NCBI GenBank assembly: GCA_030037315.1
Contig: JASHRM010000048.1
Span: 748-64,747, forward strand
Reading direction: 5' to 3'
DNA: 64,000 bases
DNA from: Candidatus Acidiferrales bacterium
Lineage (GTDB): Bacteria > Acidobacteriota > Terriglobia > Acidiferrales > UBA7541
In this document: positions 1,033 through 63,526 of the stretch, piece after piece
Layout: each line of letters begins with the position of its first letter
How positions within the stretch are numbered: the first letter of the stretch is position 1
Program-made: the position numbers and the translations under genes
The notes under the pieces: model-generated
Databases searched by the model: none
What the model saw: only the letters and a program-made list of their open reading frames with translations
Told to the model about the DNA's origin: nothing

Positions 1033-1959
1033 CTATTGGGATGCGACCTTGAAGTTATCGACCTTTTTGAAATTGAGTAGAGACCCAAAAATGCCACGAA
1101 GCTTAGACATCTGTTCTTTGCGGTGAAACTTCATAAGCTCTTTAGAAATGGGCCTTTTTTGGCGAGTGATCGTCGCCCAGGCGAAGCCCAAGCCGAGCGC
1201 AAGCCCTTCGACAAGATAAGGCTTCTTGGTCGCGCGATAGGCAACGCGGAAGAATTCCCAAACGGGGCTACCGCCCAAGTAATAGTCTTTTTCCCCATAA
1301 GAAAATGCTGCCGCGAAGGCGCTTCGCCCCGCAGTTCCAAGATGCCTGTGATGGTAAAACGATTTTTCACGGAAGGAACGAGTCCGCCAACCCATCATCC
1401 TGGCCGCGGTGACGGCTATCCAATCGATCCCCCCGGCTTTATTGGGAAGATATCCTCCGATTTCTTCGAAGCACTCCCGGCGAAAAATCTGGCATTGGCC
1501 TGAAACATGATTTTCGCCCTCGAAGCTGTCGGTCTCGGAGTTGTAACCTTCTTCCTTGAAGATTGTGCCCGCGACGCCAAGCTTTGGGTCTTCTGCGAAT
1601 CTGCGTAGTAGGAATTCGAAATGATCGTCATCGAAAGACGTGTCCGCATCCAGATTGCCGATAATTTCGTAAGAGGCGCCCTTTAGCCGCTCACGCCCTG
1701 CGTTAAACGCATGAACTTTCGCGGCGAAATGACGCTCCTGGCGAACAGGGAGATCCACTACTTCAATCCATTCCTGTCCAGCAGTACGCTGCGCGGCTAT
1801 CGAGCCTGTAGCATCCGTCGAGCCGTCGTTCACGATGACCCATTTGATGGGCCGTACAGTTTGCCGCATCATCGAATCAATCGTCTTTTCGATGAACGCT
1901 GCCTCGTTGCGGGCCGGCGTGATGAGAACGTATGAGGGTAGGACTACCGCTTCATCCAT
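1033..1959 (-). CDS. Family-2 glycosyltransferase (GT-A fold)
   Basis: N-terminal signature VLITPARNEAAFIEKTIDSMMRQTVRPIKWVIVNDGSTDATG and the DxD-type motif NLDADTSF. Confidence 0.85.
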   Translation of the reverse strand: MDEAVVLPSYVLITPARNEAAFIEKTIDSMMRQTVRPIKWVIVNDGSTDATGSIAAQRTAGQEWIEVVDLPVRQERHFAAKVHAFNAGRERLKGASYEIIGNLDADTSFDDDHFEFLLRRFAEDPKLGVAGTIFKEEGYNSETDSFEGENHVSGQCQIFRRECFEEIGGYLPNKAGGIDWIAVTAARMMGWRTRSFREKSFYHHRHLGTAGRSAFAAAFSYGEKDYYLGGSPVWEFFRVAYRATKKPYLVEGLALGLGFAWATITRQKRPISKELMKFHRKEQMSKLRGIFGSLLNFKKVDNFKVASQ

Positions 1960-16762: not shown

Positions 16763-16915
16763 CGCTAGGTTTTCCCTCCTGTTCCCTGAAGACTTACGCG
16801 GCGCGAAGCCACTTCAAGAACCGCGAGAGACAATCCAATCAAGCGCTAGGAAGGCCGAGATGCAGGCCGGGCGGGCTACCGCCATTCACGTCGAAGCCAG
16901 CGCCATCCTAAATAC

Positions 16916-16931
16916 TGCAATCAAGGTACCA
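16916..16931 (-). promoter_or_regulatory. Candidate sigma-54 (-24/-12) promoter for the distal sub-operon (16762 downwards)
   Basis: The minus-strand sequence reads TGGTACCTTGATTGCA, against the consensus TGGCACG-N4-TTGCW. The GG and GC dinucleotides have correct spacing. It lies in the 391-bp gap, about 150 nt upstream of the SDR start at 16762. Confidence 0.55.
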
Positions 16932-17153
16932 GCTCCACCCACTCCGCAGAAACAGCCGCCCACTGTGAACATCGCAAAACACTGTTTATGAATGACTTAG
17001 AAGAAAAGCCACGATTGATTGCGAGATGGATCCTCGAAAACTCAGCGACAGGGAAAATTCTTGCCACTATATAGCCGCGCGGCTTCCCTCAGATGCCATA
17101 GAGCAGCTCGTTCTTTCTAAGTCTATCAGAATCATAGAGTTACAAATAGGCCG

Positions 17154-30393: not shown

Positions 30394-30651
30394 TTGGAGT
30401 TTCTCCTCAAAAATATTGACCGGTGCGTCTGTTTTTGAGTGTCCGGAGCCCAGCTTATCACGCTCTAGAATGTCATCGAGTAGGCCGAACGTACCGAATG
30501 CCACTGGTACCTGTGGGTGCCTTCAAAAAGCAAAGGGACCGCTGTCCCAAGACTGACCGCGCGTACAGGTGATTTCCCCATTGGGGCCGGGCAAAATGCC
30601 TTCGAGAAGCAAAAGCCCAAAATCGGCGAACTTTTAATTAGGATGGTATCC

Positions 30652-32379
30652 ATGACTGGAATCAGGAAATTCTGCATGCTGGCTATTCTCATCGCAATCT
30701 CTGGCCCTGCCCTGCGCGCCCAGCAGACCAATGCCGCCAGCTGCAATTCGTCAGATGTTCAGACGGCTATCAATTCCGCCCAAGAAGGCGGTACCGTGCT
30801 GGTGCCGGCCGGGACGTGTACGTGGACCAGCGGAGTGAACATTTCCGGTAAAGGCATTACCCTGCAAGGTGCTGGCGGAGGCCGGGTCATCGCCGTAGAC
30901 GTCGAGTCCTCGGCCGTCAGCATTGGTACGGGAACCAAGACGTTCTCCAATGTGACAAATGATCAGGGCGCGACGGCCTATCTCAACGCGACTGCTCCGG
31001 GAATCACCGTCGGCGAAACATTGCGTATTTACGAGAACGGCTTCCTCGGGAACTACATGCAAGGCACCGTCGCGAGTTCTTCGGGTTCGACGCTCACCAT
31101 GAACATTACTGGCACAAGCGGTTCGTGCGGCGCTTCAGCGCCGGCAAATACGATGCAGAGCAACTGCAAGCGGTGGCTCATCAGCACTCTACCCTCGACG
31201 ACTATCGTCGACAATCTCAGTTCGGGAGCGATGATCAGCGTCACCGAAGATACGAGCTACGATACGACGATCACCGGAATCCAGTTCGCTCAAGGGAGCG
31301 GCGGTGGTGGCGCGGGAGAGTCTATTGATCTCAACCGCAACAATCCTAGCGGTGTCGCCGTGCTGATCCACGACAATTTCTTCGAGTCAAATGCTGCAGA
31401 CATCATCGACGGGGACACAAATCGCGGGGTCATTTGGAACAACTCGTTTGTATTTTCTCCGTTCAGCGAAGGCCAATATGCAGCAATTCGCATCAAAGAT
31501 GCAAATAACACGGCCTTGGCATACTCCTGGTCCAGCCCGTCAACCATGGGGACGGCGGATACCACCGGGCAAAGCAATCTATATTTTGAGACGAACGATG
31601 TCCATGCAGATGGCGACTTCACGGATTTCGATGACAACTCGAGGGCAGTAGTTCGTTACAACGTTTTAGACAATGCCGGCGCAGCTACGCACGGAGCAGA
31701 TACTTCCGCGATTGGGCTCCGCCATTTCGAATATTACAACAATGCTGGGATCTTTGAGAGTTACGGAGATGGCACAACGGCCAACATGAATTGGTGGATG
31801 TTCGTTCGCGGTGGAACTTTCGTTTGGCACGACAATACACTTCCAGCCATCAGTTCTCAGGATTGGGGCAGCAAGTCGGACATAAATCTAACCGTGATGA
31901 CCCTTCAGCGTGAGGACGAATATGCCTGCTGGGGCTCAGGTTTTTCAACTCCTGGACAATACTATCCAGCTCCGCGGCAAGTTGGCTTTGGCTACGTTAC
32001 TGGAAACGGGACGCTGAATTGGCCAGCCGGGGGTTTCAGTAACGTGGCCTCAACCACTAATTCGTCCGCATATGTGGGCTCCATTTACGGCGGAGACAGT
32101 GAACCTGTGTACATTTGGAACAACAATCGTACGATGAATGTCGGCATTTCAGATTATGGTCTCAATAACGGTTCGACGAGTTGCCCCAGCACGCCGACTC
32201 CGGATAGCACGGCAAATTATCTCGTCTCTGGGCGCGACTACTTCAATGGCACAGCCAAGCCCGGATACAGCCCCTATGTTTACCCGCATCCTCTTACGAC
32301 TGGCAGTCAGAGCACGACCGGCAGTCAGAGTTCAGGAGTGCCTGCCGCTCCAACGAATCTGACGGCGACCGTCGAATGA
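30652..32379 (+). CDS. Secreted right-handed beta-helix protein (candidate polysaccharide lyase/hydrolase)
   Basis: Signal peptide MTGIRKFCMLAILIAISGPALRAQ (ATG at 30652; alternative at 30643). DVQTAINSAQEGGTVLVPAGTCTWTSGVNISGKGITLQGAG is the usual start of pectate-lyase-fold proteins. Asn/Gly-rich repeats follow. The C-terminus carries a TGSQS-T-TGSQS tandem and ends at PAAPTNLTATVE. Confidence 0.65.
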   Translation: MTGIRKFCMLAILIAISGPALRAQQTNAASCNSSDVQTAINSAQEGGTVLVPAGTCTWTSGVNISGKGITLQGAGGGRVIAVDVESSAVSIGTGTKTFSNVTNDQGATAYLNATAPGITVGETLRIYENGFLGNYMQGTVASSSGSTLTMNITGTSGSCGASAPANTMQSNCKRWLISTLPSTTIVDNLSSGAMISVTEDTSYDTTITGIQFAQGSGGGGAGESIDLNRNNPSGVAVLIHDNFFESNAADIIDGDTNRGVIWNNSFVFSPFSEGQYAAIRIKDANNTALAYSWSSPSTMGTADTTGQSNLYFETNDVHADGDFTDFDDNSRAVVRYNVLDNAGAATHGADTSAIGLRHFEYYNNAGIFESYGDGTTANMNWWMFVRGGTFVWHDNTLPAISSQDWGSKSDINLTVMTLQREDEYACWGSGFSTPGQYYPAPRQVGFGYVTGNGTLNWPAGGFSNVASTTNSSAYVGSIYGGDSEPVYIWNNNRTMNVGISDYGLNNGSTSCPSTPTPDSTANYLVSGRDYFNGTAKPGYSPYVYPHPLTTGSQSTTGSQSSGVPAAPTNLTATVE

Positions 32380-51947: not shown

Positions 51948-53120
51948 TCAGAACGCGCCATCGCCTGTGAGCACAGCCCAGGGCGTCGCAAGTAGGATCT
52001 TAAGATCCAACCACAACGACCACGACTGCGAATAGCGAAGGTCGAGCCGGACCATGTCGTTGAAACTGGTGCGACTGCGCCCACTGATTTGCCATAGCCC
52101 CGTGACACCGGGCTTCAGCTCATGCACACGGCGGCGGTGCCAGAAATCGTATTGCTCGAACTCATAAGGAACCGGAGGACGGGGGCCGACAAGGGACATC
52201 TCGCCCCGTAGCACGTTCAAAAATTGCGGGAATTCGTCCAAGCTCGTCCGGCGCAGAAATCTTCCGATCGGAGTTATTCTCGGATCGTTGGTGATCTTGT
52301 AGATCGGTTCGTCTTCACCTTGTGGATTCCGGCCATTTTGGCCCGCAATAAACTGCTGAACGAACTCGCGATGAATCTTGGGATCACTATCGACGTACAT
52401 CGTCCGGAATTTGAAGCACTTGAAGCTTTTTCCGAATTGGCCCAAGCGCTCCTGGGCGAAAATCACAGGGCCCTTTGAAGTCAACTTGATGATAACGGCA
52501 ATCACAGCCAATGCTGGCGATAGGAGCATCAGAAGAATCGCGCTTCCCGCTATATCGATAGCGCGTTTTGCAGCAGTCGTCGATTGCTTCTTTTTCGAGA
52601 CTTTCGCAGAAATATCGGGATAGAGCTTTATATCGGCAATTCTGTCTGTGCCGTTGTCATGCCAACTCTCCGGATACAAGTGGAGAGTCACGATCAACCT
52701 CGATGCGATCTCGGGCTCAAGATTCTCACGTATCGCACGAATCACTTTGGAGTGGAGAACGTCAGTCACCAGACTTGGCGCCTCCATATTGATCTCAGTA
52801 AAAATAATCGCGAGAGTGTCGTTCTCTTCGTACCAGCCGATCATGTCGCTCTCGCGAGTTGCGCCGCACACGACCGACGTCAACCGTTGCAGGAAGTCCG
52901 CTGCCTTTCCATTTTTGGGCAGCGCATGGGCGTCTACCAGCATTAGCGCGAACGGCTTACGTGATCGCTCGGCGCGCCTGCGCTCAAGGGCCAGCATCGC
53001 GTGGAAGATATCCTGACGCAGCACGCAATCGAGCCTGTCAGAAATTCGATCGACGCCCGACAGCATGTAGCTGTTATCGATTCGTCCTAGTTTCGATTCC
53101 TTCGTCGCCGTCGCTCTCAC
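51948..53120 (-). CDS. Priming polyprenyl-phosphate phosphoglycosyltransferase (bacterial sugar transferase) with an N-terminal degenerate GGDEF-like domain
   Basis: The C-terminal half reads RAIDIAGSAILLMLLSPALAVIAVIIKLTSKGPVIFAQERLG...FKFRTM...DEFPQFLNVLRGEMSLVGPRP...KPGVTGLWQ. The N-terminal ~185 aa are soluble and align by eye with the GGDEF fold (RESD-MIGWY-EENDT). Confidence 0.85.
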   Translation of the reverse strand: MRATATKESKLGRIDNSYMLSGVDRISDRLDCVLRQDIFHAMLALERRRAERSRKPFALMLVDAHALPKNGKAADFLQRLTSVVCGATRESDMIGWYEENDTLAIIFTEINMEAPSLVTDVLHSKVIRAIRENLEPEIASRLIVTLHLYPESWHDNGTDRIADIKLYPDISAKVSKKKQSTTAAKRAIDIAGSAILLMLLSPALAVIAVIIKLTSKGPVIFAQERLGQFGKSFKCFKFRTMYVDSDPKIHREFVQQFIAGQNGRNPQGEDEPIYKITNDPRITPIGRFLRRTSLDEFPQFLNVLRGEMSLVGPRPPVPYEFEQYDFWHRRRVHELKPGVTGLWQISGRSRTSFNDMVRLDLRYSQSWSLWLDLKILLATPWAVLTGDGAF

Positions 53121-53193
53121 AGGATTACTCGCAGCCCTTATCTTACGTTCTAAGAACCTAGTCTATTTGCAGATCATTCCGTATTGCAGTCGC

Positions 53194-53760
53194 TTATGCC
53201 ATTCCACCCTGCAACAGAACTCGTGTTGCTGCAGTTTGAATCCTGTGGTTCTCTTGAACCGGCTTTATACACGCCCGGTCTATTTCGAGAGCGACCGACC
53301 GACGCAACAGCGAGATGGAAACCACAACTCGGTACCCACCCTTGAAATTGATTAATATTCCTTCTAACCCGTGAAAAGAATCCTGTTCGATCCTGATTTT
53401 CTGACCTATTTCCAGGTAAGGCCAGGGCTCTACATGTATGCCTGAGGACACCGCGGATTGAATGGAGGCGATCTCGCTGTCCTCGACGGGTTGCGGAACT
53501 CGGCCCTGGCCCACGACTGCGATCACTCCAGGCGTGACCAATATCGGCAACCTTTTCTGGGCTTCAAACTGGCAAAACACGTAACCAGGAAAGAGCGCGG
53601 CTCTGGCTTCTCGAAATTTTCCGTTTGATCGCTTGTGAACTTTATAGGTCGGAAGAAAAGTCTGGTAACCCTTGCCGGAAAGAAGCAATGCGGTTGAGCT
53701 TTCCCAACGCGTTCTCACTTGTAAGGCAAACCATCTCGCGCTGCCAGATTCGACGCTCAT
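53194..53760 (-). CDS. NusG-family paralog (RfaH/UpxY-like operon-specific antiterminator)
   Basis: NGN domain WFALQVRTRWESSTALLLSGKGYQTFLPTY...LFPGYVFCQF and KOW-like IGQKIRIEQDSFHGLEGIL. First gene after a 459-bp gap. Confidence 0.8.
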   Translation of the reverse strand: MSVESGSARWFALQVRTRWESSTALLLSGKGYQTFLPTYKVHKRSNGKFREARAALFPGYVFCQFEAQKRLPILVTPGVIAVVGQGRVPQPVEDSEIASIQSAVSSGIHVEPWPYLEIGQKIRIEQDSFHGLEGILINFKGGYRVVVSISLLRRSVALEIDRACIKPVQENHRIQTAATRVLLQGGMA

Positions 53761-53835
53761 CGGGTCCCAAAACTTTCCCGCCGTGATGACGTGTGTAGGC
53801 TACCGCCATTGACGGCGCACCGCACGAGGATATGT

Positions 53836-53851
53836 CGCAACCTGCGTGCCA
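53836..53851 (-). promoter_or_regulatory. Candidate sigma-54 (-24/-12) promoter for the long biosynthetic operon
   Basis: The minus-strand sequence is TGGCACGCAGGTTGCG, i.e. TGGCACG-N4-TTGC, a near-perfect match to the consensus TGGCACG-N4-TTGCW. It is 76-91 nt upstream of the NusG-like ATG (53760). Confidence 0.65.
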
Positions 53852-53903: not shown

Positions 53904-54219
53904 TATAGGATAATGAGGTAGTTAGTTTACAATTCGAATGTCGCCGTTTTTCGTCGTACTACGCTTGCTGGTCAGCATTCAGGGGAACGAGTGAAAAGTG
54001 TTACCACCATTTGCCAAGACATTTCCGCACGGGCTCGGCGATCGCACTGGTCATAAGGTATTTGGTTACAACAATATACAGGAGATCAACTATGTGTTCA
54101 TCCACAAGGCAGGTTGCTCGTAGGATTTACGGCGATTGCCAACCGTAAGTGGACGATTCGAAATGTCTTACATTGAGACGCGGACGTACCATGGGGGTAG
54201 AGCAAACCGAAGCGGCAGC

Positions 54220-55164
54220 CTAAGGCGTCTGATCCGTTTCGTCTAACTCGCTCTCGGTCCCGTAGGCTCGATAGTAATATGAGCCGTACATTCCTGCTTC
54301 GTCGACGGCATTCAATACCACGCCCACGAGATTATGAGCTTGTAGCTCTTGCCGAGCCCGCTCTGCAACCGAACTCGGAGTGGACCCGGCTTTCACAACT
54401 AAGAGTACACCGTCACAAAGTTCGGCCAGGATAGAAGCGTCGGCGACAGGTAGACAGGGTGGGGAATCGAGTATGACCCAGTCAAAAACAGGCGAAACTC
54501 GATCAAGCAATTTCTTGAAGGCTCCGTTGGACAGCAGTTCGCTCGGATTCGCCGCTTCACTTCCACCAGGAATGAAGCAGAGATCGTCCTGCTGGCTGTA
54601 CTGAATAATTGACAATTCGTCGGCGTCGCCTCGGAGATAATCGGTCAGTCCAGGAGAAGAAGGGGCACCAAGCAAAGTGTGTACCCGGGCGCAACGCAAG
54701 TCCGCGTCGATAATCAACGCTCGCCGGTCCGGTTGTCGCACAATTGCCTGGGCAAGGTTTGCAGCAACGAACGTCTTACCCTCGCCGGGTACCGAGCTGG
54801 TTACGAGCACACTCTTGATCGGCTGATTTCCGCGAAGCTGATACAACCGCGAGCGAAGCGTGCGGAACTGCTCGGCCCCGTGAACGCTGAGACCAGGGTT
54901 AAAAAATACGTTCATATTTGGATCAAGCTGCCACTCGGCATGCGAGGATCGCGTGCGTAAATCGTCAAAACGCAGATAGCCGGGCGTGGCCGACGCAATG
55001 GGCAGAGCGCCGACGGGGGTCTCCATGGATCCGACCGCGGGGGTATCAGCACTCCAGGCGGGCGCGGCGGTTTGGGTTTCCATCGGGGGTGCAACAATCT
55101 CTGTGATTTGGCTCGGCGTGCGCTCTTGTTCCGCTTTTTTCAGGGCATCGTGAATGCGACTCAT
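54220..55164 (-). CDS. BY-kinase (CpsD/CapB/EpsG-type tyrosine autokinase)
   Basis: MSRIHDALKKAEQE N-terminus, Walker A SSVPGEGKTFVAANLA, Walker A' LIIDADLR, and the C-terminal Tyr cluster GMYGSYYYRAYG. Confidence 0.85.
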   Translation of the reverse strand: MSRIHDALKKAEQERTPSQITEIVAPPMETQTAAPAWSADTPAVGSMETPVGALPIASATPGYLRFDDLRTRSSHAEWQLDPNMNVFFNPGLSVHGAEQFRTLRSRLYQLRGNQPIKSVLVTSSVPGEGKTFVAANLAQAIVRQPDRRALIIDADLRCARVHTLLGAPSSPGLTDYLRGDADELSIIQYSQQDDLCFIPGGSEAANPSELLSNGAFKKLLDRVSPVFDWVILDSPPCLPVADASILAELCDGVLLVVKAGSTPSSVAERARQELQAHNLVGVVLNAVDEAGMYGSYYYRAYGTESELDETDQTP

Positions 55165-56111
55165 GGTTTCCTTTCGCGCGACGGCACAGCACTGAGGTGT
55201 CGAAGGCGCACAAGTAGTTCGTCAAGATTTTCAAGCAAAGCCTGTGTATTCGCCGTCTGTTGAGCCGCAGCAGTCGATGTACCGGAAGCAACTGGCGCAA
55301 CCTCATCAAGCTGAAACTCTCTCGCAACTTCCTCGACCAGATTGCCCGGTACAGGACGCACGCTGTCCACATATGCGTTGATCATCGAATGTTCGCAGAG
55401 CAAATTGACAACTCTGGGGATACCGCGCGAGTACGTGTGTACGGCCTCGATAGCTTCCTTAGAAAAGATCGGGGTGCCGTTTGCCCCAGCAATGCGCAAT
55501 CGCTCCGCAATGTATCCAAACGTTTCGTCAAGGTTCAGCGGGGCGGTGCGGCATCGGAGCGTAATTCGTTGCCGAAGTTGCCGAAGCTCCGGGAGCTTTA
55601 GTTTTTCCTCAAGTTCCGGCTGGCCCGTCAGCACGATCTGAAGTAGCTTTTCCGTGGCCGTTTCGAGATTTGTAAGCAGACGAATTTCTTCCAAGACTTC
55701 TGCGCCGAGGTTTTGGGCCTCGTCGACTATCAGCACGGCAGTCTCACCCGCCCGATAGCGCTCTAACAACCACTGGTTGAGCCGAAGCAGGACTTGGCTC
55801 TTTTCTCGCGAGTCGAAGGGAATTTCAAAATCAGCCATCATGAAATCGAAGAGATGGTTGACTTCAAGGCGAGAATTGAAGATGTACGCCGTCGCCACGC
55901 GTTGCCCACGCAACCAATCGAGCAGTCGGTTTAGAAGAGTCGTTTTCCCAGTCCCCACCTCACCCGTCAGCAAAATGAAGCCCTTGCGATTTTGAATTCC
56001 ATAGGTGAGACCGGCCAAGGCTTCCTGAATCTGCCGCGTCATGTACAAATAACGCGGGTCAGGATTCACGTTGAACGGGCTCTCTCGAAGCCCAAAGAAT
56101 CTCTGATACAT
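55161..56111 (-). CDS. ExeA-like AAA ATPase (PEP-CTERM-locus putative secretion ATPase type)
   Basis: MYQRFFGLRESPFNVNPDPRYLY...FILLTGEVGTGKTTLL...VLIVDEAQNL. Confidence 0.85.
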   Translation of the reverse strand: MYQRFFGLRESPFNVNPDPRYLYMTRQIQEALAGLTYGIQNRKGFILLTGEVGTGKTTLLNRLLDWLRGQRVATAYIFNSRLEVNHLFDFMMADFEIPFDSREKSQVLLRLNQWLLERYRAGETAVLIVDEAQNLGAEVLEEIRLLTNLETATEKLLQIVLTGQPELEEKLKLPELRQLRQRITLRCRTAPLNLDETFGYIAERLRIAGANGTPIFSKEAIEAVHTYSRGIPRVVNLLCEHSMINAYVDSVRPVPGNLVEEVAREFQLDEVAPVASGTSTAAAQQTANTQALLENLDELLVRLRHLSAVPSRERKP

Positions 56112-56116
56112 CTTAA

Positions 56117-57649
56117 TTAGGCTCCTCGAGACAATCCGAGACTGGAACTGGACTCCGGCAAATTCGATTTCTTGAGAGGTTTTCGGCTCGAAATCGGCCC
56201 AATGGCCGGGACCATCGCTAGCACAGGCAGCCGCAGGGCAAATTCCACATCACGCTCTGTCCGGAGCGATTTGTCCTGCATTTCTAAAACGAAAGCGATG
56301 CCCACTCCCAAAGCCAACCCTCCGCCAAATCCTCCCAAGAGGAAATTAAGCCCATTCGGAAATGAAGGGCTGTCAGGCAAGTTCGCGGGATCCAGAATCG
56401 TAAATTGCTCGCTCTGCTGTTGTGATTGCAGATCACCTGCCATCTTGGCTTCCTCTCGCTTTTTCAAGAGGTCATTGTAGGAATCGAGCGCTGTCTGATA
56501 GCCGCGCGTCAGCTCCTTATATTGTTCTTCCACAGCGGGACTAGTTTGAATCCGGCCCTGGTAAACTTGGATTTCTTTCTTGATCTCTTCCTGCTCCCTA
56601 CTTTTCTCTGCGATCACTTGTTCAGCGGTGTGAATTTGGCTGCGGTACTGCGTGATCTGTGCGGGCTCAACGGTTGACTTCTGTGACGGAGCAACGGGAG
56701 TTTTCGCATCGTTCGATTCCGCGATCCTCTTTTGAAGAACCGCGATATCGGCTTTGGCCTTAATCACGTCCGGATAATCATCCGTATAACGAGCCTGAAG
56801 GCTTGCCAGCTGTGTTTGTAATGCAACAAGCTGCTGTTGCAACGTTTCCGGGTTGTGCCCTGTCTGGGATTCCTGCCAAGCCGCAAGCTGCTGCGTCAGC
56901 ATCGACTCGGCGAAGCTCTTATCCTGCTGCGCGCGCGCCAGGGCCTGGCTCGCTGCATCCAGTTGCGTAGTCAAATCGGTGAGCAGGTTCAGGTTTCTTG
57001 TTTCATCCTCCGGTAACGAGCCGATGTAGTGGCTCTTGAACGCGGCGAGCTTTGCATCCTGTTGATCGAGATTCGCCTTCGCATCCGCCAATTGCTGGGT
57101 AAGAAATCGGGTCGTTTGTTCGGAATGTTGTTCGCGCAATTCGGAGTCTTCGGAGATAAACATCGACGTGATGGTCGTGCAAACGCCTTGCGCGGCGCGC
57201 GGATTATCCAGCGTCACGGAGATGATGAATCCTGGCAGATCTCTCGCTCCCGTTTCAGCCATTGGTTCGATCGGCGTGATGTCGATCGCCTTCTGCAGCC
57301 GCGCGACTAAGTCTTCCATCGGCCGCTTATCGATATCGTCTCGATACAGGCCGAATTGACGGATGACGGGTTCCAGCCTAGTTCTGCTGAGAATCTGCTG
57401 CTGCATACTCGCCAATTGTTGACTGATGGATGTGACATCGATCTGCGGAACGATTTGGTCCGAAACCGTCGGAGGCTGCACCAGAACAACCGTCTGTGAC
57501 TTATATCGAGCCGGAAGAAATATGGAAACGCCGTAAGCCAGCGGGCCTCCGACGAGGGTGAGCAACAAAATCGGCACCCAGCGTCGCCGCAGCATGGCGA
57601 CGTAATCTTCAAAAGTAAGTTCACGCTGATGTTGTTCGTCCACTGCCAT
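56117..57649 (-). CDS. Polysaccharide chain-length determinant / co-polymerase (Wzz/GumC-like, PCP family)
   Basis: N-terminal TM then YKSQTVVLV, a long coiled-coil middle section, a second TM near the C-terminus (LLGGFGGGLALGVGIAFVLE), 510 aa. Confidence 0.85.
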   Translation of the reverse strand: MAVDEQHQRELTFEDYVAMLRRRWVPILLLTLVGGPLAYGVSIFLPARYKSQTVVLVQPPTVSDQIVPQIDVTSISQQLASMQQQILSRTRLEPVIRQFGLYRDDIDKRPMEDLVARLQKAIDITPIEPMAETGARDLPGFIISVTLDNPRAAQGVCTTITSMFISEDSELREQHSEQTTRFLTQQLADAKANLDQQDAKLAAFKSHYIGSLPEDETRNLNLLTDLTTQLDAASQALARAQQDKSFAESMLTQQLAAWQESQTGHNPETLQQQLVALQTQLASLQARYTDDYPDVIKAKADIAVLQKRIAESNDAKTPVAPSQKSTVEPAQITQYRSQIHTAEQVIAEKSREQEEIKKEIQVYQGRIQTSPAVEEQYKELTRGYQTALDSYNDLLKKREEAKMAGDLQSQQQSEQFTILDPANLPDSPSFPNGLNFLLGGFGGGLALGVGIAFVLEMQDKSLRTERDVEFALRLPVLAMVPAIGPISSRKPLKKSNLPESSSSLGLSRGA

Positions 57650-57668
57650 CTCCTATCGATCAGCTCTT

Positions 57669-59168
57669 TTAGAACGGAAGCGGCCGTGATAGCCAGCCGA
57701 TCCCAACTGTGACCGAATTGCGTATGATGTTCGTGCCGCACGTAGGCAAACAGAAATTCTCATTCGAATCCTGGTACTGAAACTCATAGGCGACCGAAAG
57801 CCGCAACGTGCGCCCAATCGGGTGCGTCAGATTCGCGCTCGTAAACCAATAATCGTAATTCTGAGGCGCCACACTATCCGAAATGATCGTTGTGCCAGCA
57901 CTGCGCGAAAATCCCGCATTCACGTTGCCGGAAAGTGTCCGCGTTATTTGGCGGCTGAAAAACCCGGTAGCCATGTCGTTTACCGAACCCGCTAACACGC
58001 CGGATCCAGCGTAGACGCCGTGATCAAAGGAGACACCCAACTGCGAGCGTTCGAACGCATAGGTAAGAGATGTGTTCAGCGCCCACGTAACCTGCGAAAA
58101 CGAAGTGATGGTCGGCGGCTCACCCGTCGTTCCCTGATTCAGAGTGATCGGAAACCTTGAGAAAATGAATTGCGGGCCTGCCGCAATTTGGAACGCGAGC
58201 CTACCGGTGACGCGCCGCGCGTAGGACAACTGCACGGTATGTGTATTGATCGACTGATCGAAACCGCTATATCGGATACCATTGTACGTATAAAAGACCG
58301 CGACCGTATCCTTTCGCGTCGCCTGGTAATTATATCCGGCGCGCGCGATCACATCGCCAGATGTCAGCAGACTGCTGCTGAAGTAATCAAGCAACGTGTA
58401 TCCTCCGGCGAATGTCAGCGACGACCGGCGGCTGAGATAACGGTCGACTTCCAGGAAAGATGAATTCGACAAATTCTGACCGAAACCCGTCAGCAGGGAT
58501 TGACCGGATGTAAACCCTGCACCCAGCCCGGATGCACCGCCACCAGGCAAGGAAATACCGCCGTTCCCAAATCCGAACGATGATTCGGGCAAGTAACTCA
58601 GCTGATCGAATAGTCCGACGCTCCATCGCCGGAAATTCAATCTGTCAGAAAAACCTAACTCCTGGACAATGCCGTTGCCAACATCGCTCTGGTTGGAGAA
58701 CATTCCACCGGCTAGATAACTTAGAGACAGCATCGAATTCGACGAATTTCGAACTAGATCTACACCGCCGTAAACCGCAGCCCATGCTCCCCAGCCCGTA
58801 CTTCCAGCCGTCTCTTGGGGATTCGAATCGGCCGTGGCTGTTAGATCCACATATGGCTGCCAATAGCTATGGTTCATCGGAATGCCTAGCGACAAGTTCT
58901 GAACGCCGGAAAGCGGCCTGTTATCTGGAGCCAATTCCTGCGTCTCTTGGCCAGTTCCATTGTCAGCCGCAGCCGCCATCGGCGAGCGATAAGCTGGAAT
59001 CGGGGGTGTGCTTTGGACTGGCCCCTGATTCGAGTTTTGGTCGCCGCCTTGACTGTTGTTTTGTCCGTTGTTTTGATCTTGAGGCTGCTGCTGAGCGCGG
59101 GAAGGCAGTACGCACACCACGGCGAACAAGAGAGAGAGAAAAGCAGCTCGATGTAATGTACGTTTCAT
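57669..59168 (-). CDS. Predicted outer-membrane beta-barrel protein (PEP-CTERM-locus associated type)
   Basis: Signal peptide MKRTLHRAAFLSLLFAVVCVLPSRAQ from the ATG at 59168. A Q/N/G-rich linker is followed by alternating-hydrophobicity strands. It ends in ...GIGWLSRPLPF (terminal Phe). Confidence 0.6.
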   Translation of the reverse strand: MKRTLHRAAFLSLLFAVVCVLPSRAQQQPQDQNNGQNNSQGGDQNSNQGPVQSTPPIPAYRSPMAAAADNGTGQETQELAPDNRPLSGVQNLSLGIPMNHSYWQPYVDLTATADSNPQETAGSTGWGAWAAVYGGVDLVRNSSNSMLSLSYLAGGMFSNQSDVGNGIVQELGFSDRLNFRRWSVGLFDQLSYLPESSFGFGNGGISLPGGGASGLGAGFTSGQSLLTGFGQNLSNSSFLEVDRYLSRRSSLTFAGGYTLLDYFSSSLLTSGDVIARAGYNYQATRKDTVAVFYTYNGIRYSGFDQSINTHTVQLSYARRVTGRLAFQIAAGPQFIFSRFPITLNQGTTGEPPTITSFSQVTWALNTSLTYAFERSQLGVSFDHGVYAGSGVLAGSVNDMATGFFSRQITRTLSGNVNAGFSRSAGTTIISDSVAPQNYDYWFTSANLTHPIGRTLRLSVAYEFQYQDSNENFCLPTCGTNIIRNSVTVGIGWLSRPLPF

Positions 59169-59172
59169 GGCG

Positions 59173-59790
59173 CTATGGGACAACAATCGTGTCTCCCGCT
59201 TTGAGGCTCACGTTCTCGTCAGGACGTTTCCCGTTAACTACATCTTTGTAGTTGAACGGATATTTCACCTGTTTGCCATTTTCCATTCGAAACATGTAAA
59301 TCTTCTTCAAATTTGCGAATTGCGTGAAACCGCCCGCACTCGACAAGGCCTGGAGAAAGGTCATATTAGGCAGCAAGGGATATGCTCCCGCCCGCGATAC
59401 TTCACCCATGATGTAAACGCGCTGACTATTGATTTGACTCACGATTACGGTTACTTGAGGATCGGTAACAAATTTTTTGAGATCAGTCGTGATCTGGGCT
59501 GCCAGCTGCGTCGGAGTCAAGCCTGCGGCTTGCACGTCATTGAGCAACGGTAAAGAAATCTTTCCATCCGGCCGCACGGGAACCGTGCGAGTTAGCTCAG
59601 GCTCCTTCCAAACGCTGATGTCCAGAATGTCCTGTGCACCAATCGTGTAGTTCGGATCACTAGCTGCCTGTTTCGGTGTCTCGGACTGGGCCGCATTTGT
59701 TTGGGCCTGCGTCAGCGCCGGTAAGAGCGCGATTGCCAGGGCCGTCAGTACCCAAGCTTGTAATCGTCGATGCATTGACTTCGCTCCCAT
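59173..59790 (-). CDS. Polysaccharide export protein (Wza/EpsE-like: Poly_export + SLBB)
   Basis: Signal peptide, YTIGAQDILDISVW, PVRPDGKISLPLL and VYIMGEV motifs. 205 aa. Confidence 0.85.
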   Translation of the reverse strand: MGAKSMHRRLQAWVLTALAIALLPALTQAQTNAAQSETPKQAASDPNYTIGAQDILDISVWKEPELTRTVPVRPDGKISLPLLNDVQAAGLTPTQLAAQITTDLKKFVTDPQVTVIVSQINSQRVYIMGEVSRAGAYPLLPNMTFLQALSSAGGFTQFANLKKIYMFRMENGKQVKYPFNYKDVVNGKRPDENVSLKAGDTIVVP

Positions 59791-59791
59791 C

Positions 59792-60736
59792 TCAGTGGCT
59801 CACCTCATCCACACCAATTTGTTTCAATTTGTACAGCAAGGATTTGTAGCTGATCTGTAATTCGCGCGCCGCCCGCTTGCGGTTCCACCGCGTGCGCGAT
59901 AGAGCCTTTAATATCAGCTCCCGCTCCGCCTCTCGCGAGGCTGCTCGTGCGGCCGCCTTCAGCGAATAGGTTTCAGAGGTCTTGTCCCTTGCAGAAATCG
60001 CCATTTGTTCTTCGATTCCGGCTAGGGCCAGCTTCTCGTCGCCAAGCGCGACGAGTTTTCTCGCAACATTTTCAAGTTCTCGAATGTTCCCAGGCCACGA
60101 ATAATCGATTAGCGACTGGAGCGCCTCCGCGCTGAAGTCCGGGCGTGGCCTGCCGAGTTCTCCCGCGTGCTTTGTCAGGAAAAATTCGAGCAGAGAGGGA
60201 ATATCTTCTTTGCGCTCGCGAAGAGGCGGCAGCCTCAAACAGATGCAACTAATCCTGTAATAAAGATCGCTGCGAAAACGGCCGGCGCGCATCTCCTGAT
60301 CCAGATTCCGGCTCGTTGTTGAAATGAGCCTCACATTGAAAGCGCTGCGGCACGATTCTCCTTCACCGTCAGGCAGAGCGCATAACAAATCACGCTGGCA
60401 GGAAACATCCAAATCCGCAATCTCGTCCAGAAAGAGTGTCCGAGTGCCGTTGAATTCCTGTCCTCGAGAATTCGATCCGATTTCAGAGAACAAGTCGTTG
60501 GATCGGATCGAACCGCAAGAGACTCGTATGAGGGGTGCCGTTGCATGCCGCGAAAGACGGTGCGCCCGTCGAGCAAACATCTCTTTTCCAGTGCCGCTCT
60601 CGCCAACGAAAAGAATCGGAATATTCGTGGGCGCAATTTCCGAAAGAACTCCCTCCAATGTTAGCGTGGCGCGGCTGACACCTGTGAACCATCCAAGCGG
60701 CGGCGAGGCCAACTCAGTTGTATTGTCGATTGTCAT
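59792..60736 (-). CDS. AAA+ enhancer-binding-protein-like transcriptional regulator without a sensory domain or the GAFTGA loop
   Basis: Walker A VGESGTGKEMFA, Walker B TLFLDEI, FRSDLYYRI, LPPLRERKEDIP, WPGNIRELEN, and the Fis-type HTH RKRAARELQISYKSLLYKLKQ. Only 12 aa lie between SEIG and TLFLDEI, where canonical bEBPs have about 23 including GAFTGA. Confidence 0.85.
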   Translation of the reverse strand: MTIDNTTELASPPLGWFTGVSRATLTLEGVLSEIAPTNIPILFVGESGTGKEMFARRAHRLSRHATAPLIRVSCGSIRSNDLFSEIGSNSRGQEFNGTRTLFLDEIADLDVSCQRDLLCALPDGEGESCRSAFNVRLISTTSRNLDQEMRAGRFRSDLYYRISCICLRLPPLRERKEDIPSLLEFFLTKHAGELGRPRPDFSAEALQSLIDYSWPGNIRELENVARKLVALGDEKLALAGIEEQMAISARDKTSETYSLKAAARAASREAERELILKALSRTRWNRKRAARELQISYKSLLYKLKQIGVDEVSH

Positions 60737-60901
60737 AGAGCAAGTTGTCGTGCGGCGCTAACTCTCTGGTGAGATCAGGACGCAGCGATCACGGCGCCTT
60801 CGGCGCGATTTGAGATGAACCCCTTTGCTTTCCGTAAGATGGAAAGAATCTATCGCTCTCCACTTTTTCAGCACATTAACCTACCGTCGGCACTGGTATA
60901 G

Positions 60902-60916
60902 GCAATCGGGCTGCCC
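60902..60916 (-). promoter_or_regulatory. Weaker candidate sigma-54-type promoter upstream of the regulator/export operon
   Basis: The minus strand reads GGGCAGCCCGATTGC. GG and GC are at the correct spacing but flanking positions deviate. It lies 166-180 nt upstream of the ATG at 60736. Confidence 0.3.
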
Positions 60917-61193
60917 TTGAATCCTTGGCTGAGCCCCTGTCAGTAAAGCGATTGTTTTAATGGACTTCCGGTTGGTCAGCTCTGCAGACCTGAGGATTAG
61001 GTGGTAGGCAACGGGCAGAAGGTGGAAAATCTCTTCCACTCCCTCCCATCTAGAACTTGCTCTTCGCGGCTAGGCGACGCCCCCGTCAGCTTTCAACGGG
61101 TGTCCCTACATCATCGACTATGCTGGTAACAAACGACTTAGTATGTAGCCCGCGTTCGAGCCAGGCTTCGGGACTCACAATTGCAACATTCAC

Positions 61194-61214
61194 AGAATCT
61201 GCGAAGAATCTGCG
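61194..61214 (+). repeat. Tandem direct repeat AGAATCTGCG-A-AGAATCTGCG (11-bp period) upstream of the TPR gene
   Basis: Read directly. It lies 33-53 nt upstream of the ATG at 61247 and overlaps the left arm of the inverted repeat CTGCGC(61210-61215)/GCGCAG(61228-61233). Confidence 0.4.
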
Positions 61215-61246
61215 CGATCACGATGTTGCGCAGAAATCGAGGCGCT

Positions 61247-63526
61247 ATGTTTCGTAAGTTATTGATTATAATTGATATAGTTTTAATACTCGCGACGGCC
61301 GGCTGCGCAAGAAACTCGGAGGCCCGGAAAAGGCACTACATAGACAGGGGAAGTTCCTACCTTCAGCAAGGTAAGTATCAAGAAGCAATCATCGAATATG
61401 AAAACGCGGTCCAAATCGACCCTAGGAATAGCGATGCCCACTACGGGCTCGCACAGTGCCTCATTAAGGAGGGCGACTGGACACACGCTTACCAAGAGCT
61501 GATGTCCGCAGTCGAGTTCGCGCCCAACAATTGGAAGGCGCAGTTGACGTTAGGCAACCTGTTGCTCGCAGGCCACCATGTCGCGGAAGCACGCGATAGG
61601 GCGCAAACGGTACTGCGGGCCGATCCGGGCAATGCGCAAGCGGAAGTTCTCTTGGCTGCATCAGACGCGGCTGCCGGCGATTTAAATAAGGGAATCTCTG
61701 AAGGACAGCAAGCGGTCCAAATGAACCCCAGCCGCTCGGACAGTTATCTCTTCCTCGCCGAAGCGGAAGAGAAAAATAAAGATTTCCTATCCGCCGAAAG
61801 AGATTACCGAAAGGCCAGCAGTCTAAATCCCAAGTCAGCGCCGCTAATGTTGAGATTGGGTGAATTTCTCGCTCGACAGAAACGCTATTCCGACGCGGAA
61901 CAGGAGTTCAAGCTGGCATCTACCTCCGCCCCGACGGACCCCGCCCCGCGGGCGGCGCTCGCGCAGCTGTACTTCACCCAAGGTCAGAAGGAGATGGCGG
62001 AAAAGGTCTTGCGAGACGCCAGCACCTCCTTGAAAGATAATCCGCGAGCATATCGAATGCTCGCCGACTACTACCTGAGCCAGAAGCAGATGGACAAAGC
62101 GTTGACTGAATTCGCCTCGCTTCATTCCGAGCATCCCAAGGATATTACCGTCACGAAAACATATATCGGGATACTCATAGACCAAAATCGCTTGGATGAC
62201 GCGTCGAAGCTTACCGATGAAATTCTCCAAAGCTCAAGTTCCGACACAGATGCACTTATCTTTCGCGGAGAAATTTTGATCCGGCAAGGGAAAGCGAGTG
62301 ATGCGATTCCCATACTGGCGTCGGCCGCGAAAAATGCGCCGAACAATCCGATCGCCCATTACCAACTAGGCGTTGCGCATGCCGAAACTTCAGACGATGC
62401 AGAAGCGCAATCCGAATGGGAAAAAGCCGCGACCCTGGCGCCGAACATGGTCGACAGCGAACGCGCCCTGGCATTGCTGGCAGTCCGCAAGTCGGACGCA
62501 AGCTTGCTGACTTCCAGCAGCGAGCAGTTGATGCGAATTGAACCTCATGCCGCTGAGGGCTACATATGGAATGCCAAAGCTTTCTTACTAAAGGGCAATG
62601 AAAATGACGCAATAGAAGATCTCAAGAAAGCCATGGAAGCGGCCCCGCAGGATTCGGCCCCGCTTGCTCGAATGGCGGATCTGCGATTCGCCCACAAACA
62701 ATACGACGATGCCGCGAAGCTATATTCCCAAGCGCTGGCGCTTAATCCGAACGCAGTGGATGCGCTCGTCGGCCTTGTCAACATAGACCTGGTTCGAAAG
62801 CAGCCCGCTGAAGCGTTGAAGCGCGTGCAAGAGCAAATTGCGCGCATTCCGGATAATACAAACTTATATGTGCTGCTCGGTCAGGCAGAACTGCGCAACC
62901 AGGACTCGGCGAAGGCTGAACAGGCATTCCAAAAAGCCATCGACTTGAACAAAAACAACGTCAACGCATTTCTAATGCTGGCCAGTACGGAAGTAGCGCG
63001 CGGCTCGGTAGATCAAGCCATCACAAATTATCAACAAGCCCTCCAAACTAATCCGCGCGACGTACGTCTTCACGCCGGGTTGGGAATGCTGCTCGAAATG
63101 CGAGGCGATTGGCAAAAGGCAGAGGATTCCTACCAGAGAGCTTTGGATATTCAGCCTGATTATCCGCTAGCCGCGAACAACCTCGCGTACCTAATGTTGG
63201 AGCATGGAGGGAACGTGAACGTTGCTCTTTCGTTGGCACAAACAGCGCGTCGAGGATTGCCGGATCAGCCCAACGCAGCTGATACACTCGGCTGGGCGTA
63301 TTATCATCAAGGCGCTTATTCCTCCGCGATCGACATGCTGCAACAAGCGGTTAGCGAAAACTCGAAGAACGCGACGTTCCACTATCACCTGGGGATGGCG
63401 TACGAAAAAGCCAGCAAATACGCAATGGCCAAGAAAGAGCTTGAAGACGCGCTACAGATCAATCCGAACTATGCGCAGGCCGATGAGATCCGCAAAGTGC
63501 TGGCCAGCAAGCCCGCGTCAAATTAG
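61247..63526 (+). CDS. TPR-repeat lipoprotein (PrsT-like, PEP-CTERM system associated)
   Basis: MFRKLLIIIDIVLILATAGC is a lipoprotein-type signal with Cys. More than 15 TPR-like units then run throughout (AIIEYENAVQIDPRNSDAHYGLAQC...). Divergent from the regulator/export operon. The ORF-track start at 61181 is probably too long. Confidence 0.75.
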   Translation: MFRKLLIIIDIVLILATAGCARNSEARKRHYIDRGSSYLQQGKYQEAIIEYENAVQIDPRNSDAHYGLAQCLIKEGDWTHAYQELMSAVEFAPNNWKAQLTLGNLLLAGHHVAEARDRAQTVLRADPGNAQAEVLLAASDAAAGDLNKGISEGQQAVQMNPSRSDSYLFLAEAEEKNKDFLSAERDYRKASSLNPKSAPLMLRLGEFLARQKRYSDAEQEFKLASTSAPTDPAPRAALAQLYFTQGQKEMAEKVLRDASTSLKDNPRAYRMLADYYLSQKQMDKALTEFASLHSEHPKDITVTKTYIGILIDQNRLDDASKLTDEILQSSSSDTDALIFRGEILIRQGKASDAIPILASAAKNAPNNPIAHYQLGVAHAETSDDAEAQSEWEKAATLAPNMVDSERALALLAVRKSDASLLTSSSEQLMRIEPHAAEGYIWNAKAFLLKGNENDAIEDLKKAMEAAPQDSAPLARMADLRFAHKQYDDAAKLYSQALALNPNAVDALVGLVNIDLVRKQPAEALKRVQEQIARIPDNTNLYVLLGQAELRNQDSAKAEQAFQKAIDLNKNNVNAFLMLASTEVARGSVDQAITNYQQALQTNPRDVRLHAGLGMLLEMRGDWQKAEDSYQRALDIQPDYPLAANNLAYLMLEHGGNVNVALSLAQTARRGLPDQPNAADTLGWAYYHQGAYSSAIDMLQQAVSENSKNATFHYHLGMAYEKASKYAMAKKELEDALQINPNYAQADEIRKVLASKPASN

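Follow-up and report, generated by a model that had tools for sequence, protein, structure and literature searches.

The 64,000-nt stretch of contig JASHRM010000048.1 of a Candidatus Acidiferrales bacterium (assembly GCA_030037315.1) that we analyzed, hereafter the window, encodes at 59792..60736 (-) a 314-aa regulator that combines an AAA+ domain of the sigma-54-interaction type with a Fis-type helix-turn-helix (HTH) domain, is homologous to bacterial enhancer-binding proteins (bEBPs), and is the product of the first cistron of an exopolysaccharide (EPS) export operon. Sigma-54 promoters are regarded as absolutely dependent on an activator with a GAFTGA loop. The family of this regulator breaks the pattern in its context: its members have neither the loop nor a sensory domain, yet reside behind one conserved -24/-12 promoter and in front of another, in more than 330 species. 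Judging from the sequence comparisons, the regulator very probably cannot activate sigma-54 alone. The reading that we favor, with a probability of about 0.45, is that it forms a nucleotide-dependent oligomer on enhancer DNA and there modulates, and probably dampens, the activation brought about by a canonical bEBP whose gene lies elsewhere. For the family as a whole, we tentatively propose loop-less bEBPs that work at sigma-54 enhancers, either as anti-activators with negative feedback or as DNA-tethering subunits of mixed rings.

The remodeling loops of the regulator and its family

In a Pfam scan, the regulator matched PF00158 (Sigma54_activat) at residues 23-166, with 100.8 bits against a cut-off of 20.2, as well as AAA_lid_14, and no REC, GAF, PAS or other sensory domain was found in the 314 residues. 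The initial annotation, made from the sequence alone, had described an open reading frame (ORF) of this length that starts near the AAA+ core, with Walker A at aa 45-51, a C-terminal Fis-type HTH, and none of these three sensory domains, and the ORF and Pfam matches agree with it on each point. The architecture, AAA+ plus HTH alone, is that of PspF (group V). Walker A (GESGTGKE, aa 45-52, 60581..60604 (-), of which GESGTGK is aa 45-51) is invariant in the subfamily, and so are D104 and E105 of the Walker B strand (TLFLDE, aa 100-105, 60422..60439 (-)), a motif that is degenerate in remoter short relatives. The HTH (HTH_8, aa 268-306, 59819..59935 (-)) carries the near-invariant family signature TRWNRKRAA..LQISYKSLLYKLKQIG. 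PADLOC matches to CARF_AAA_HTH proteins of the RtcR/PspF type were rejected, as only the AAA+ and HTH domains are shared, with no CARF domain and no defense context.

Between ...FSEIG and TLFLDEI, the regulator has the 12 residues that were counted initially (SNSRGQEFNGTR, aa 88-99, 60440..60475 (-)), a remnant of loop L1 that stands in for a GAFTGA hairpin and helix return of about 23 residues. The claim that the GAFTGA loop is deleted is confirmed, with a refinement of its wording: formally, the motif is mutated, and it is the return half of the hairpin that is deleted. The segment after Walker B, correctly recognized as short, is a reduced L2, or pre-sensor-I insertion (LPDGEGESCRSAFN, aa 121-134, 60335..60376 (-)), that is devoid of the F.RVGG motif and, relative to canonical bEBPs, lacks 4-6 residues (4 in HMMER alignments). 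Alignment of the two loops with those of bEBPs, the check suggested at the outset, confirmed both gaps, that in L1 amounting to 11-13 residues in HMMER comparisons with ZraR, NifA, DmpR, NtrC1, PspF and other bEBPs of solved structure. The spacing between Walker A and Walker B is, accordingly, 56 residues in the regulator versus exactly 68 in about 50 canonical GAFTGA-containing bEBPs. In HMMER and MAFFT alignments, RGQEFNG lies opposite (K/A)GAFTGA, with F95 opposite F85 and N96 opposite T86 of PspF, a similarity that is shared neither by the closest homologue (P0002, 75% identical) nor by the rest of the family.

The residues of the ATPase site fared differently. With PspF as the ruler (in a mapping that agrees with HMMER alignments to the PspF chains of the PDB), K42, D107/E108, T148, R162, R168 and R227 correspond to K51, D104/E105, T141, R155, R161 and R219, all of them kept. 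Two further positions qualify the statement that the sensor residues are retained: N149 is replaced by Ser142 and N64, the 'glutamate-switch' Asn, by Ser73 (S, A, P, G or T across the family). An AlphaFold2 (AF2) model built on 42 orthologues, with a mean predicted local distance difference test score of 81.5, shows a helix at 79-86, then a low-confidence 12-residue coil and the Walker B strand, with no L1 hairpin; L2 (121-134) is likewise modeled as a short coil. The best Foldseek match is NtrX, itself a GAFTGA-less protein; in HMMER comparisons with the PDB, NtrX (E-value 3.7e-37) and VpsR (2.3e-31) match more weakly than ZraR (5.5e-47). The regulator scores below the cut-offs of the following specific models: PspF (TIGR02974, 179.3 vs 443.55 bits; PRK11608, 150.3 vs 529), the NCBIfam models of NtrX (172.4 vs 600), TyrR (143.6 vs 576) and DhaR (141.6 vs 551), and PrsR (TIGR02915, 173.2 vs 502.6). 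A comparison by eye only yielded no convincing match to the c-di-GMP-binding residues of the FleQ/VpsR type.

The GAFTGA-bearing L1 contacts region I of sigma-54, and single changes in GAFTGA abolish activation (PMC3162934). Homologues without GAFTGA, namely, TyrR, DhaR, HupR, VpsR, the NtrC of Rhodobacter and Caulobacter, and NtrX, are not activators of sigma-54 (PMC3162934; bioRxiv 10.1101/2023.06.06.543975). The proposal that the locus encodes a homologue of bEBPs that cannot contact sigma-54 in the usual way is supported by the short L2, the lost Glu-switch Asn, the AF2 model and the hypervariability of L1 in the family. Given that the L1 remnant is wholly unconserved, activation of sigma-54 by the regulator alone is unlikely.

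This hypervariability emerged from a protein search in which we studied the best 120 of about 8,000 matches. These homologues, 308-386 aa in length and 59-75% identical to the regulator, all lack GAFTGA and come from metagenome bins of Acidobacteriota (Ca. Acidiferrales/Acidoferrales and Polarisedimenticolia), where they are labeled 'AtoC' or 'sigma 54-interacting regulator'. Across more than 120 orthologues, the L1 remnant between ELG(L)N and GTVFFDEI ranges from 11 to 19 residues, with both length and sequence hypervariable; the Walker A-B spacing is 52-60 residues in 120 of them. Conservation elsewhere is strict: 42 orthologues show no variation at K51, D104/E105, R155, R161 and R219, at least 80 positions are invariant altogether, including Walker A/B, the arginine fingers and WPGNIRELEN, and the HTH is nearly so (SLKAAARAASREAERELILKAL.RTRWNRKRAA.ELQISYKSLLYKLKQIG). 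Strong purifying selection acts on the ATP-site residues and on the HTH. Two family-specific HTH peptides match 336 species-representative genomes, nearly all of them metagenome-assembled genomes of Acidobacteriota; the few with other phylum labels may be binning noise. Orthologues that share 55-75% identity, all with a hypervariable L1 remnant, occur in the genomes of more than 330 species, and loss of the loop is a trait of the family, not a lesion.

An exhaustive HMMER search, reduced to representatives at 50% identity, delineated a wider clade of 290-340-aa proteins in which both L1 and L2 are shortened. In its remoter members, the Walker A Lys is kept and the DE of Walker B has decayed (to DG, AE, EE, KE, HN and others). 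These Walker-B-decayed relatives include P0125, P0131, P0134, P0146, P0148 and P0157 (loci L088 and L089), and they still head operons of the Poly_export-OMP-Wzz type (OMP, outer-membrane protein). The result is a graded series, from an activator by way of an ATPase without the loop to a DNA-binding protein that is likely a pseudo-ATPase. We found no description of this family in the literature, so that it is apparently undescribed. Haft et al. noted in 2006 that further regulators of PEP-CTERM systems were still to be discovered (PMC1569441).

Sigma-54 promoters and gene order of the EPS locus

A strict scan of the window for TGGCAC-N5-TTGCW gave 30 matches versus 28.9 expected, that is, no enrichment, so the real sites can be discerned only by comparison across loci, not by a consensus scan alone. 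For this comparison, we used 84 loci, 83 related ones and the window. In about 72 of 81 loci, the sequence TGGCA-N6-[T/G]TGC is found about 90-110 nt 5' of the regulator start and is oriented toward the regulator. Its counterpart in the window is GGGCAGCCCGATTGC (60902..60916 (-)), an element with the correct GG-N10-GC spacing that reads GGGCA, not TGGCA, and precedes the regulator ATG by about 166 nt. An enhancer-like dyad, GTGGAAgagattTTCCAC (GTGGAA-N6-TTCCAC, 61022..61039 (-)), is found a further 123 nt or so upstream, counted from the -24 element. The relatives have a comparable module at the regulator promoter, TCGTGGAA-N11-13-TTCC(A) at -133 to -115; a conserved module, ...GGGAAAGTATTTTGCCCATTCGTGGAA-N11-13-TTCC..., occupies the region upstream of the regulator promoter, at about 115-160 nt from the -24 element. 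The dyad was detected in 19-21 of 73 loci, compared with 0.4 in shuffled sequences, and an A/T-rich, IHF-like stretch separates the dyad module from the -24 element.

The second -24/-12 promoter, TGGCACGCAGGTTGCG (53836..53851 (-)), is located in the spacer between the tyrosine autokinase and NusG-paralogue genes and is kept in 50 of 52 loci. Upstream of it is the enhancer-B element GTGGTAACACTTTTCAC (53991..54007 (-)), part of a TGGCAA-N4-TGG[CT]AA...TTTTCAC module (53991-54040 (-) in the window) that occupies a fixed position near -150 (about -150 to -165) in 17-19 of 50 loci, the window being of this type; another 19 of the 50 carry an ATTGC-N12-GCAAT dyad at about -133 instead. Among the 83 related loci (L001-L083), the two forms are mutually exclusive and lineage-specific, and their alternation next to a fixed -24/-12 element and a fixed ops-like box implies enhancer turnover. 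The third promoter (16876..17067 (-)), downstream of the exosortase gene (17154-18203), has the same layout: enhancer-B GTGGCAAGAATTTTCCC at 17051-17067, -24/-12 element TGGTACCTTGATTGCA at 16916-16931 and GGCGGTAG at 16876-16883. In the entire window, the motif GTGGNANNANTTTTCNC occurs solely at the enhancer positions of the second and third promoters. A single operator common to all promoters was rejected as a demonstrated feature; the module of the regulator promoter, TGGAA-N12-TTCC, differs from those of the NusG promoter, ATTGC-N12-GCAAT or TGGCAA-N4-TGGCAA..TTTTCAC, and the k-mers that they share are weak only.

The sigma-54 promoters that had been suspected in this DNA are, thus, supported by comparative conservation at 53836-53851 (-) and 60902-60916 (-), and by shared architecture at 16916-16931 (-). 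The locus thus contains at least three genuine-looking sigma-54 promoters of textbook enhancer-dependent architecture, one of them that of the regulator itself. Between 59700 and 61300, no sigma-70 consensus promoter was found, with about one expected, which makes this a weak test. In none of 81 loci does the divergent prsT gene have a -24/-12 element, so prsT must use a promoter of another type.

The ops-like box GGCGGTAG (53800..53807 (-)) lies in the leader of the NusG operon, out of frame with the NusG-paralogue ORF of the window, and follows the -12 element of the promoter by 29-45 nt in 50 loci. Of 57 related loci, 52 have the exact box at the homologous position (for example, around 17061 in L001 and 16884 in L003, where gene callers took the box as a start codon). 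The same 8 nt begin the ops element of E. coli RfaH, ops12 GGCGGTAGCGTG (PMC5995543). This arrangement suggests that a sigma-54 promoter leads into an ops-like site where a locus-specific antiterminator would be recruited. The third and last copy of GGCGGTAG in the window, at 1268-1275 (-), again on the operon strand, falls inside an ORF (1033..1959 (-)), and no -24/-12 element is evident ahead of it. This copy could be due to chance or mark an internal re-loading site.

The stop codon of the regulator gene is 1 nt away from the start codon that follows, and the two genes are translationally coupled. The export operon (54220..59790 downstream of the regulator) continues with genes for a Poly_export/EpsE-like exporter of the XrtA type (59173-59790 (-)), an outer-membrane protein (57669-59186 (-)), the XrtA chain-length determinant (56117-57649 (-)), the XrtA-associated ATPase (TIGR03015, AAA_22/ExeA-like; 55161-56111 (-)) and, as the last gene, a tyrosine autokinase (54220-55164 (-)). 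This order, from the regulator to the kinase, is kept in 80 of the 84 loci. In conservation, the XrtA-associated ATPase far surpasses the other proteins of the locus, with 79-90% identity across L001-L083, compared with 55-63% for the regulator and 38-59% for the outer-membrane protein. In 72 of the 84 loci, as in the window, prsT, which encodes the XrtA/PEP-CTERM TPR lipoprotein (61181..63526 (+); TIGR02917, 355.5 bits vs a cut-off of 312.2), is divergent from the regulator gene. A 460-nt gap separates the export operon from a gene for a NusG paralogue of the UpxY/RfaH-like type (53194-53760 (-)), which opens the biosynthesis operon and is followed by that for a priming glycosylphosphotransferase (51948-53120 (-)); this pair (51948..53760) is present in 60 of the 84 loci. 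Further downstream come a long run of genes for sugar-modifying enzymes and glycosyltransferases and, later, those for a FemAB-type XrtA-associated protein and the exosortase. The sole long plus-strand ORF in the otherwise uniformly minus-strand cluster of about 60 kb is that at 30517-32379 (+) (620 aa). A crude regular-expression search detected no PEP-CTERM substrate genes in the window.

The search for other bEBPs near the regulator came up empty: there is no second bEBP-like gene in the 64-kb window and none within 10 kb of the regulator in the 83 related loci. PrsR, put forward initially as a possible partner, likewise did not materialize, as no protein reaching the PrsR cut-off was seen, even when the REC-type bEBPs next to GAFTGA-positive relatives were included. 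As for PrsK, the immediate neighbors of the regulator are not kinases; the kinase scan covered only part of the window ORFs. With conserved -24/-12 promoters and enhancer modules, no sigma-70 consensus and no canonical bEBP nearby, the weight shifts, among the roles envisaged in the initial annotation, to an anti-activator at upstream activating sequences or a partner of a distant bEBP.

Possible origin of the family

Among the nearest GAFTGA-positive relatives of the regulator, at about 43% identity, are P0213, P0233, P0246 and P0239. P0213 (338 aa, L084) is encoded at the head of a Poly_export-OMP operon, with a histidine kinase gene running divergently from it; P0233 (332 aa, L086) heads a Poly_export-GNVR operon downstream of a pair of genes for a kinase and a REC-type bEBP; P0246 follows such a pair as well, so that two of the four adjoin one; and P0239 precedes a Wzz gene. 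All four share the HTH type WNRK.A...ISY..LLYKLK, and three have a -24/-12 element upstream, the exception being P0239, whose contig offers only 72 nt of upstream sequence. GAFTGA-less proteins with broken Walker motifs, P0125 and P0146, head operons of the same type, one of them beside an exosortase gene.

In L086 (949-9580) and L087 (1508-6267), a sensor kinase (REC-GAF or GAF-PAS) and a full-length REC-AAA+-HTH bEBP are encoded directly upstream of the short regulator, and L086 contains two tandem modules with Poly_export. The arrangement in these two loci resembles a two-tier sigma-54 cascade acting on EPS genes.

A crude neighbor-joining tree (Kimura distances, 40 bootstraps, L1/L2 columns removed), which can only be suggestive, recovered a near-pure GAFTGA-positive clade in 36 of 40 bootstraps, with the GAFTGA-less proteins on the other side and P0258, P0197 and P0213 near the base of the GAFTGA-less group. 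As the slot of the regulator is filled by GAFTGA-positive relatives in related loci, the probable ancestor of the family is the sigma-54 activator of the EPS locus itself. An origin from PrsR was rejected: the nearest canonical representatives and the REC-type bEBPs beside GAFTGA-positive relatives score below the PrsR cut-off. In the simplest history, an autoregulated short sigma-54 activator of an exosortase-type EPS locus would have lost its remodeling loops in one lineage, and decay of the ATPase in some branches would have followed.

Function of the regulator and relation to known systems

In the favored reading, the regulator would keep ATP binding, oligomerization and enhancer-DNA binding, and would have lost the ability to convert the closed sigma-54 complex to the open one. 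Because the promoters of the locus stayed of the -24/-12 type across a deep radiation, a canonical bEBP encoded elsewhere must fire them, and the regulator could act with or against this GAFTGA-bearing protein, through enhancer occupancy or co-assembly into mixed rings. The simplest circuit would be negative feedback that caps the expression of EPS export and biosynthesis; feedback comes to mind since the synthesis of the regulator is itself sigma-54-driven, from a promoter on which it would act. The negative sign is a guess, and the regulator might, alternatively, play a positive role, as the DNA-tethering subunit of a hetero-oligomer.

Several considerations weigh against this scheme. Enhancer binding is deduced, and the modules at the regulator and NusG promoters differ, the latter being of two lineage-specific types, so that one protein may not bind them all. 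The GAFTGA-positive bEBP that would act in trans is a postulate; none is encoded in the window or within 10 kb in the 83 loci. A simple competitor would need no hydrolysis-competent site, yet the DE of Walker B and the arginine fingers are invariant. Finally, all characterized GAFTGA-less homologues act at sigma-70 promoters (PMC3162934; bioRxiv 10.1101/2023.06.06.543975).

This last point leads to the main alternative, somewhat unlikely in our judgment, that the regulator is a sigma-70-type factor similar to TyrR, HupR, NtrC of R. capsulatus or Caulobacter, NtrX, VpsR or DhaR, which would use ATP for oligomerization only and, through its HTH, activate or repress prsT or genes elsewhere, the sigma-54 promoters nearby being incidental. 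Every characterized GAFTGA-less bEBP homologue behaves in this manner (PMC3162934; for VpsR, PMC6158489), the top Foldseek match is one of these proteins, NtrX, and the combination of a degenerate Walker B with an intact Walker A in the remoter relatives fits ATP binding without hydrolysis. Furthermore, the conserved module sits between the regulator gene and prsT, the gene that is free of -24/-12 elements in 81 loci. However, this module is at the classical enhancer distance from the -24 element (-115 to -160) and 270-300 nt from prsT, the three conserved promoters of the locus are all of the -24/-12 type, and the weak test for sigma-70 consensus promoters at 59700-61300 gave none versus about one expected. 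Nor is the regulator an orthologue of NtrX, TyrR or DhaR (172, 144 and 142 bits with the NCBIfam models), and, in the neighbor-joining tree, its loop loss is independent of that in the named GAFTGA-less homologues.

If hydrolysis by a ring is still under selection, as the lack of variation in the Walker B DE, the arginine fingers and sensor II suggests, the regulator could instead be an obligate positive partner that contributes the enhancer tether and ATPase subunits to mixed hexamers in which a GAFTGA-positive bEBP provides the L1 loops. Reportedly, the short, sensor-less bEBPs HrpR and HrpS function as obligate hetero-hexamers, which would be the precedent, and work with single-chain PspF is reported to suggest that not every subunit needs a functional L1; two of the GAFTGA-positive relatives, moreover, adjoin a second bEBP. 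Such a role is nevertheless improbable: the neighborhoods of the 83 loci contain no partner within 10 kb, HrpR and HrpS both retain GAFTGA-type loops, and the lost Glu-switch Asn argues that the ATPase is uncoupled from L1 movement. Even less likely is autonomous, non-canonical activation, in which sigma-54 would be engaged by a part of the protein surface different from the GAFTGA hairpin, although the regulator is the sole bEBP-like protein of its locus, heads operons with the enhancer, IHF-like and -24/-12 architecture, has an intact set of ATPase residues and, in the window, even has an F at the position equivalent to F85. An L1 remnant that is hypervariable in sequence and, at 11-19 residues, in length cannot be a conserved interface, F95 is not kept even in the closest homologue, L2 is short and the Glu-switch Asn is lost, and single substitutions in GAFTGA suffice to abolish activation (PMC3162934). 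The loss of the remodeling loops, along with the further decay of Walker B in distant relatives, might also be taken as the mark of a functionless, decaying pseudo-regulator. This is very unlikely, the least likely of all these possibilities, considering that the intact ORF is conserved across more than 330 species (55-75% identity), at least 80 residues being invariant and the HTH almost so, and that the gene is fixed in its operon position and translationally coupled to the next one.

Should the regulator indeed work at sigma-54 enhancers, it would provide the first case of a bEBP homologue without GAFTGA that has sigma-54 rather than sigma-70 promoters as its physiological targets. By acting at enhancers, it would show how a bEBP turns into a built-in modulator of its former regulon, as a natural dominant-negative or a hetero-ring subunit, and would provide a handle on EPS control in uncultured, highly abundant soil Acidobacteriota, which matters for soil aggregation and biofilm formation. 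The pipeline labels 'sigma-54-interacting regulator' and 'AtoC' are probably misleading for this family.

Among the known systems, PspF and the group-V bEBPs (HrpR/HrpS) have the same combination of AAA+ and C-terminal Fis HTH with no sensory domain. The AAA+ core of PspF is about 36% identical to that of the regulator, the fold matches, and the two proteins have Walker A/B, arginine fingers and sensor II in common, whereas the GAFTGA hairpin, full L2 and N64 of PspF are replaced by a 12-residue variable linker, a short L2 and Ser; a partner in trans similar to PspA or HrpV is not evident for the regulator. PrsR (TIGR02915) of the PrsK/PrsR/PrsT system is also of the bEBP type and linked to an exosortase/PEP-CTERM EPS locus with sigma-54 sites and PrsT (PMC1569441). 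Unlike the regulator, which has neither REC nor GAFTGA and probably cannot activate, PrsR has a REC domain and activates its own sigma-54 sites. The GAFTGA-positive P0213 (L084) and P0233 (L086) resemble the regulator in length class (330-340 aa), architecture, HTH type, slot and upstream -24/-12 element, but proteins of this type keep GAFTGA, the 68-residue Walker spacing and the full L2, and some are encoded beside a sensor kinase, alone or together with a REC-type bEBP.

NtrC of R. capsulatus and Caulobacter, NtrX, HupR, TyrR, DhaR and VpsR have L1 deleted or mutated, as in the regulator, and generally do not activate sigma-54; VpsR, likewise, regulates an exopolysaccharide locus. All of these proteins possess a REC or ligand-sensing domain at the N-terminus and have sigma-70 promoters as targets, whereas the regulator is sensor-less, has a -24/-12 promoter of its own and is flanked by further -24/-12 promoters. 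Its nearest relatives are short GAFTGA-positive proteins of EPS loci, so that its loop was lost independently of the named homologues. The regulator works most like the known GAFTGA-less bEBP homologues, yet belongs to none of those named, and what sets it apart from them is the absence of a sensory domain, the probable descent from the activator of its own locus, and the setting inside a sigma-54 regulon.

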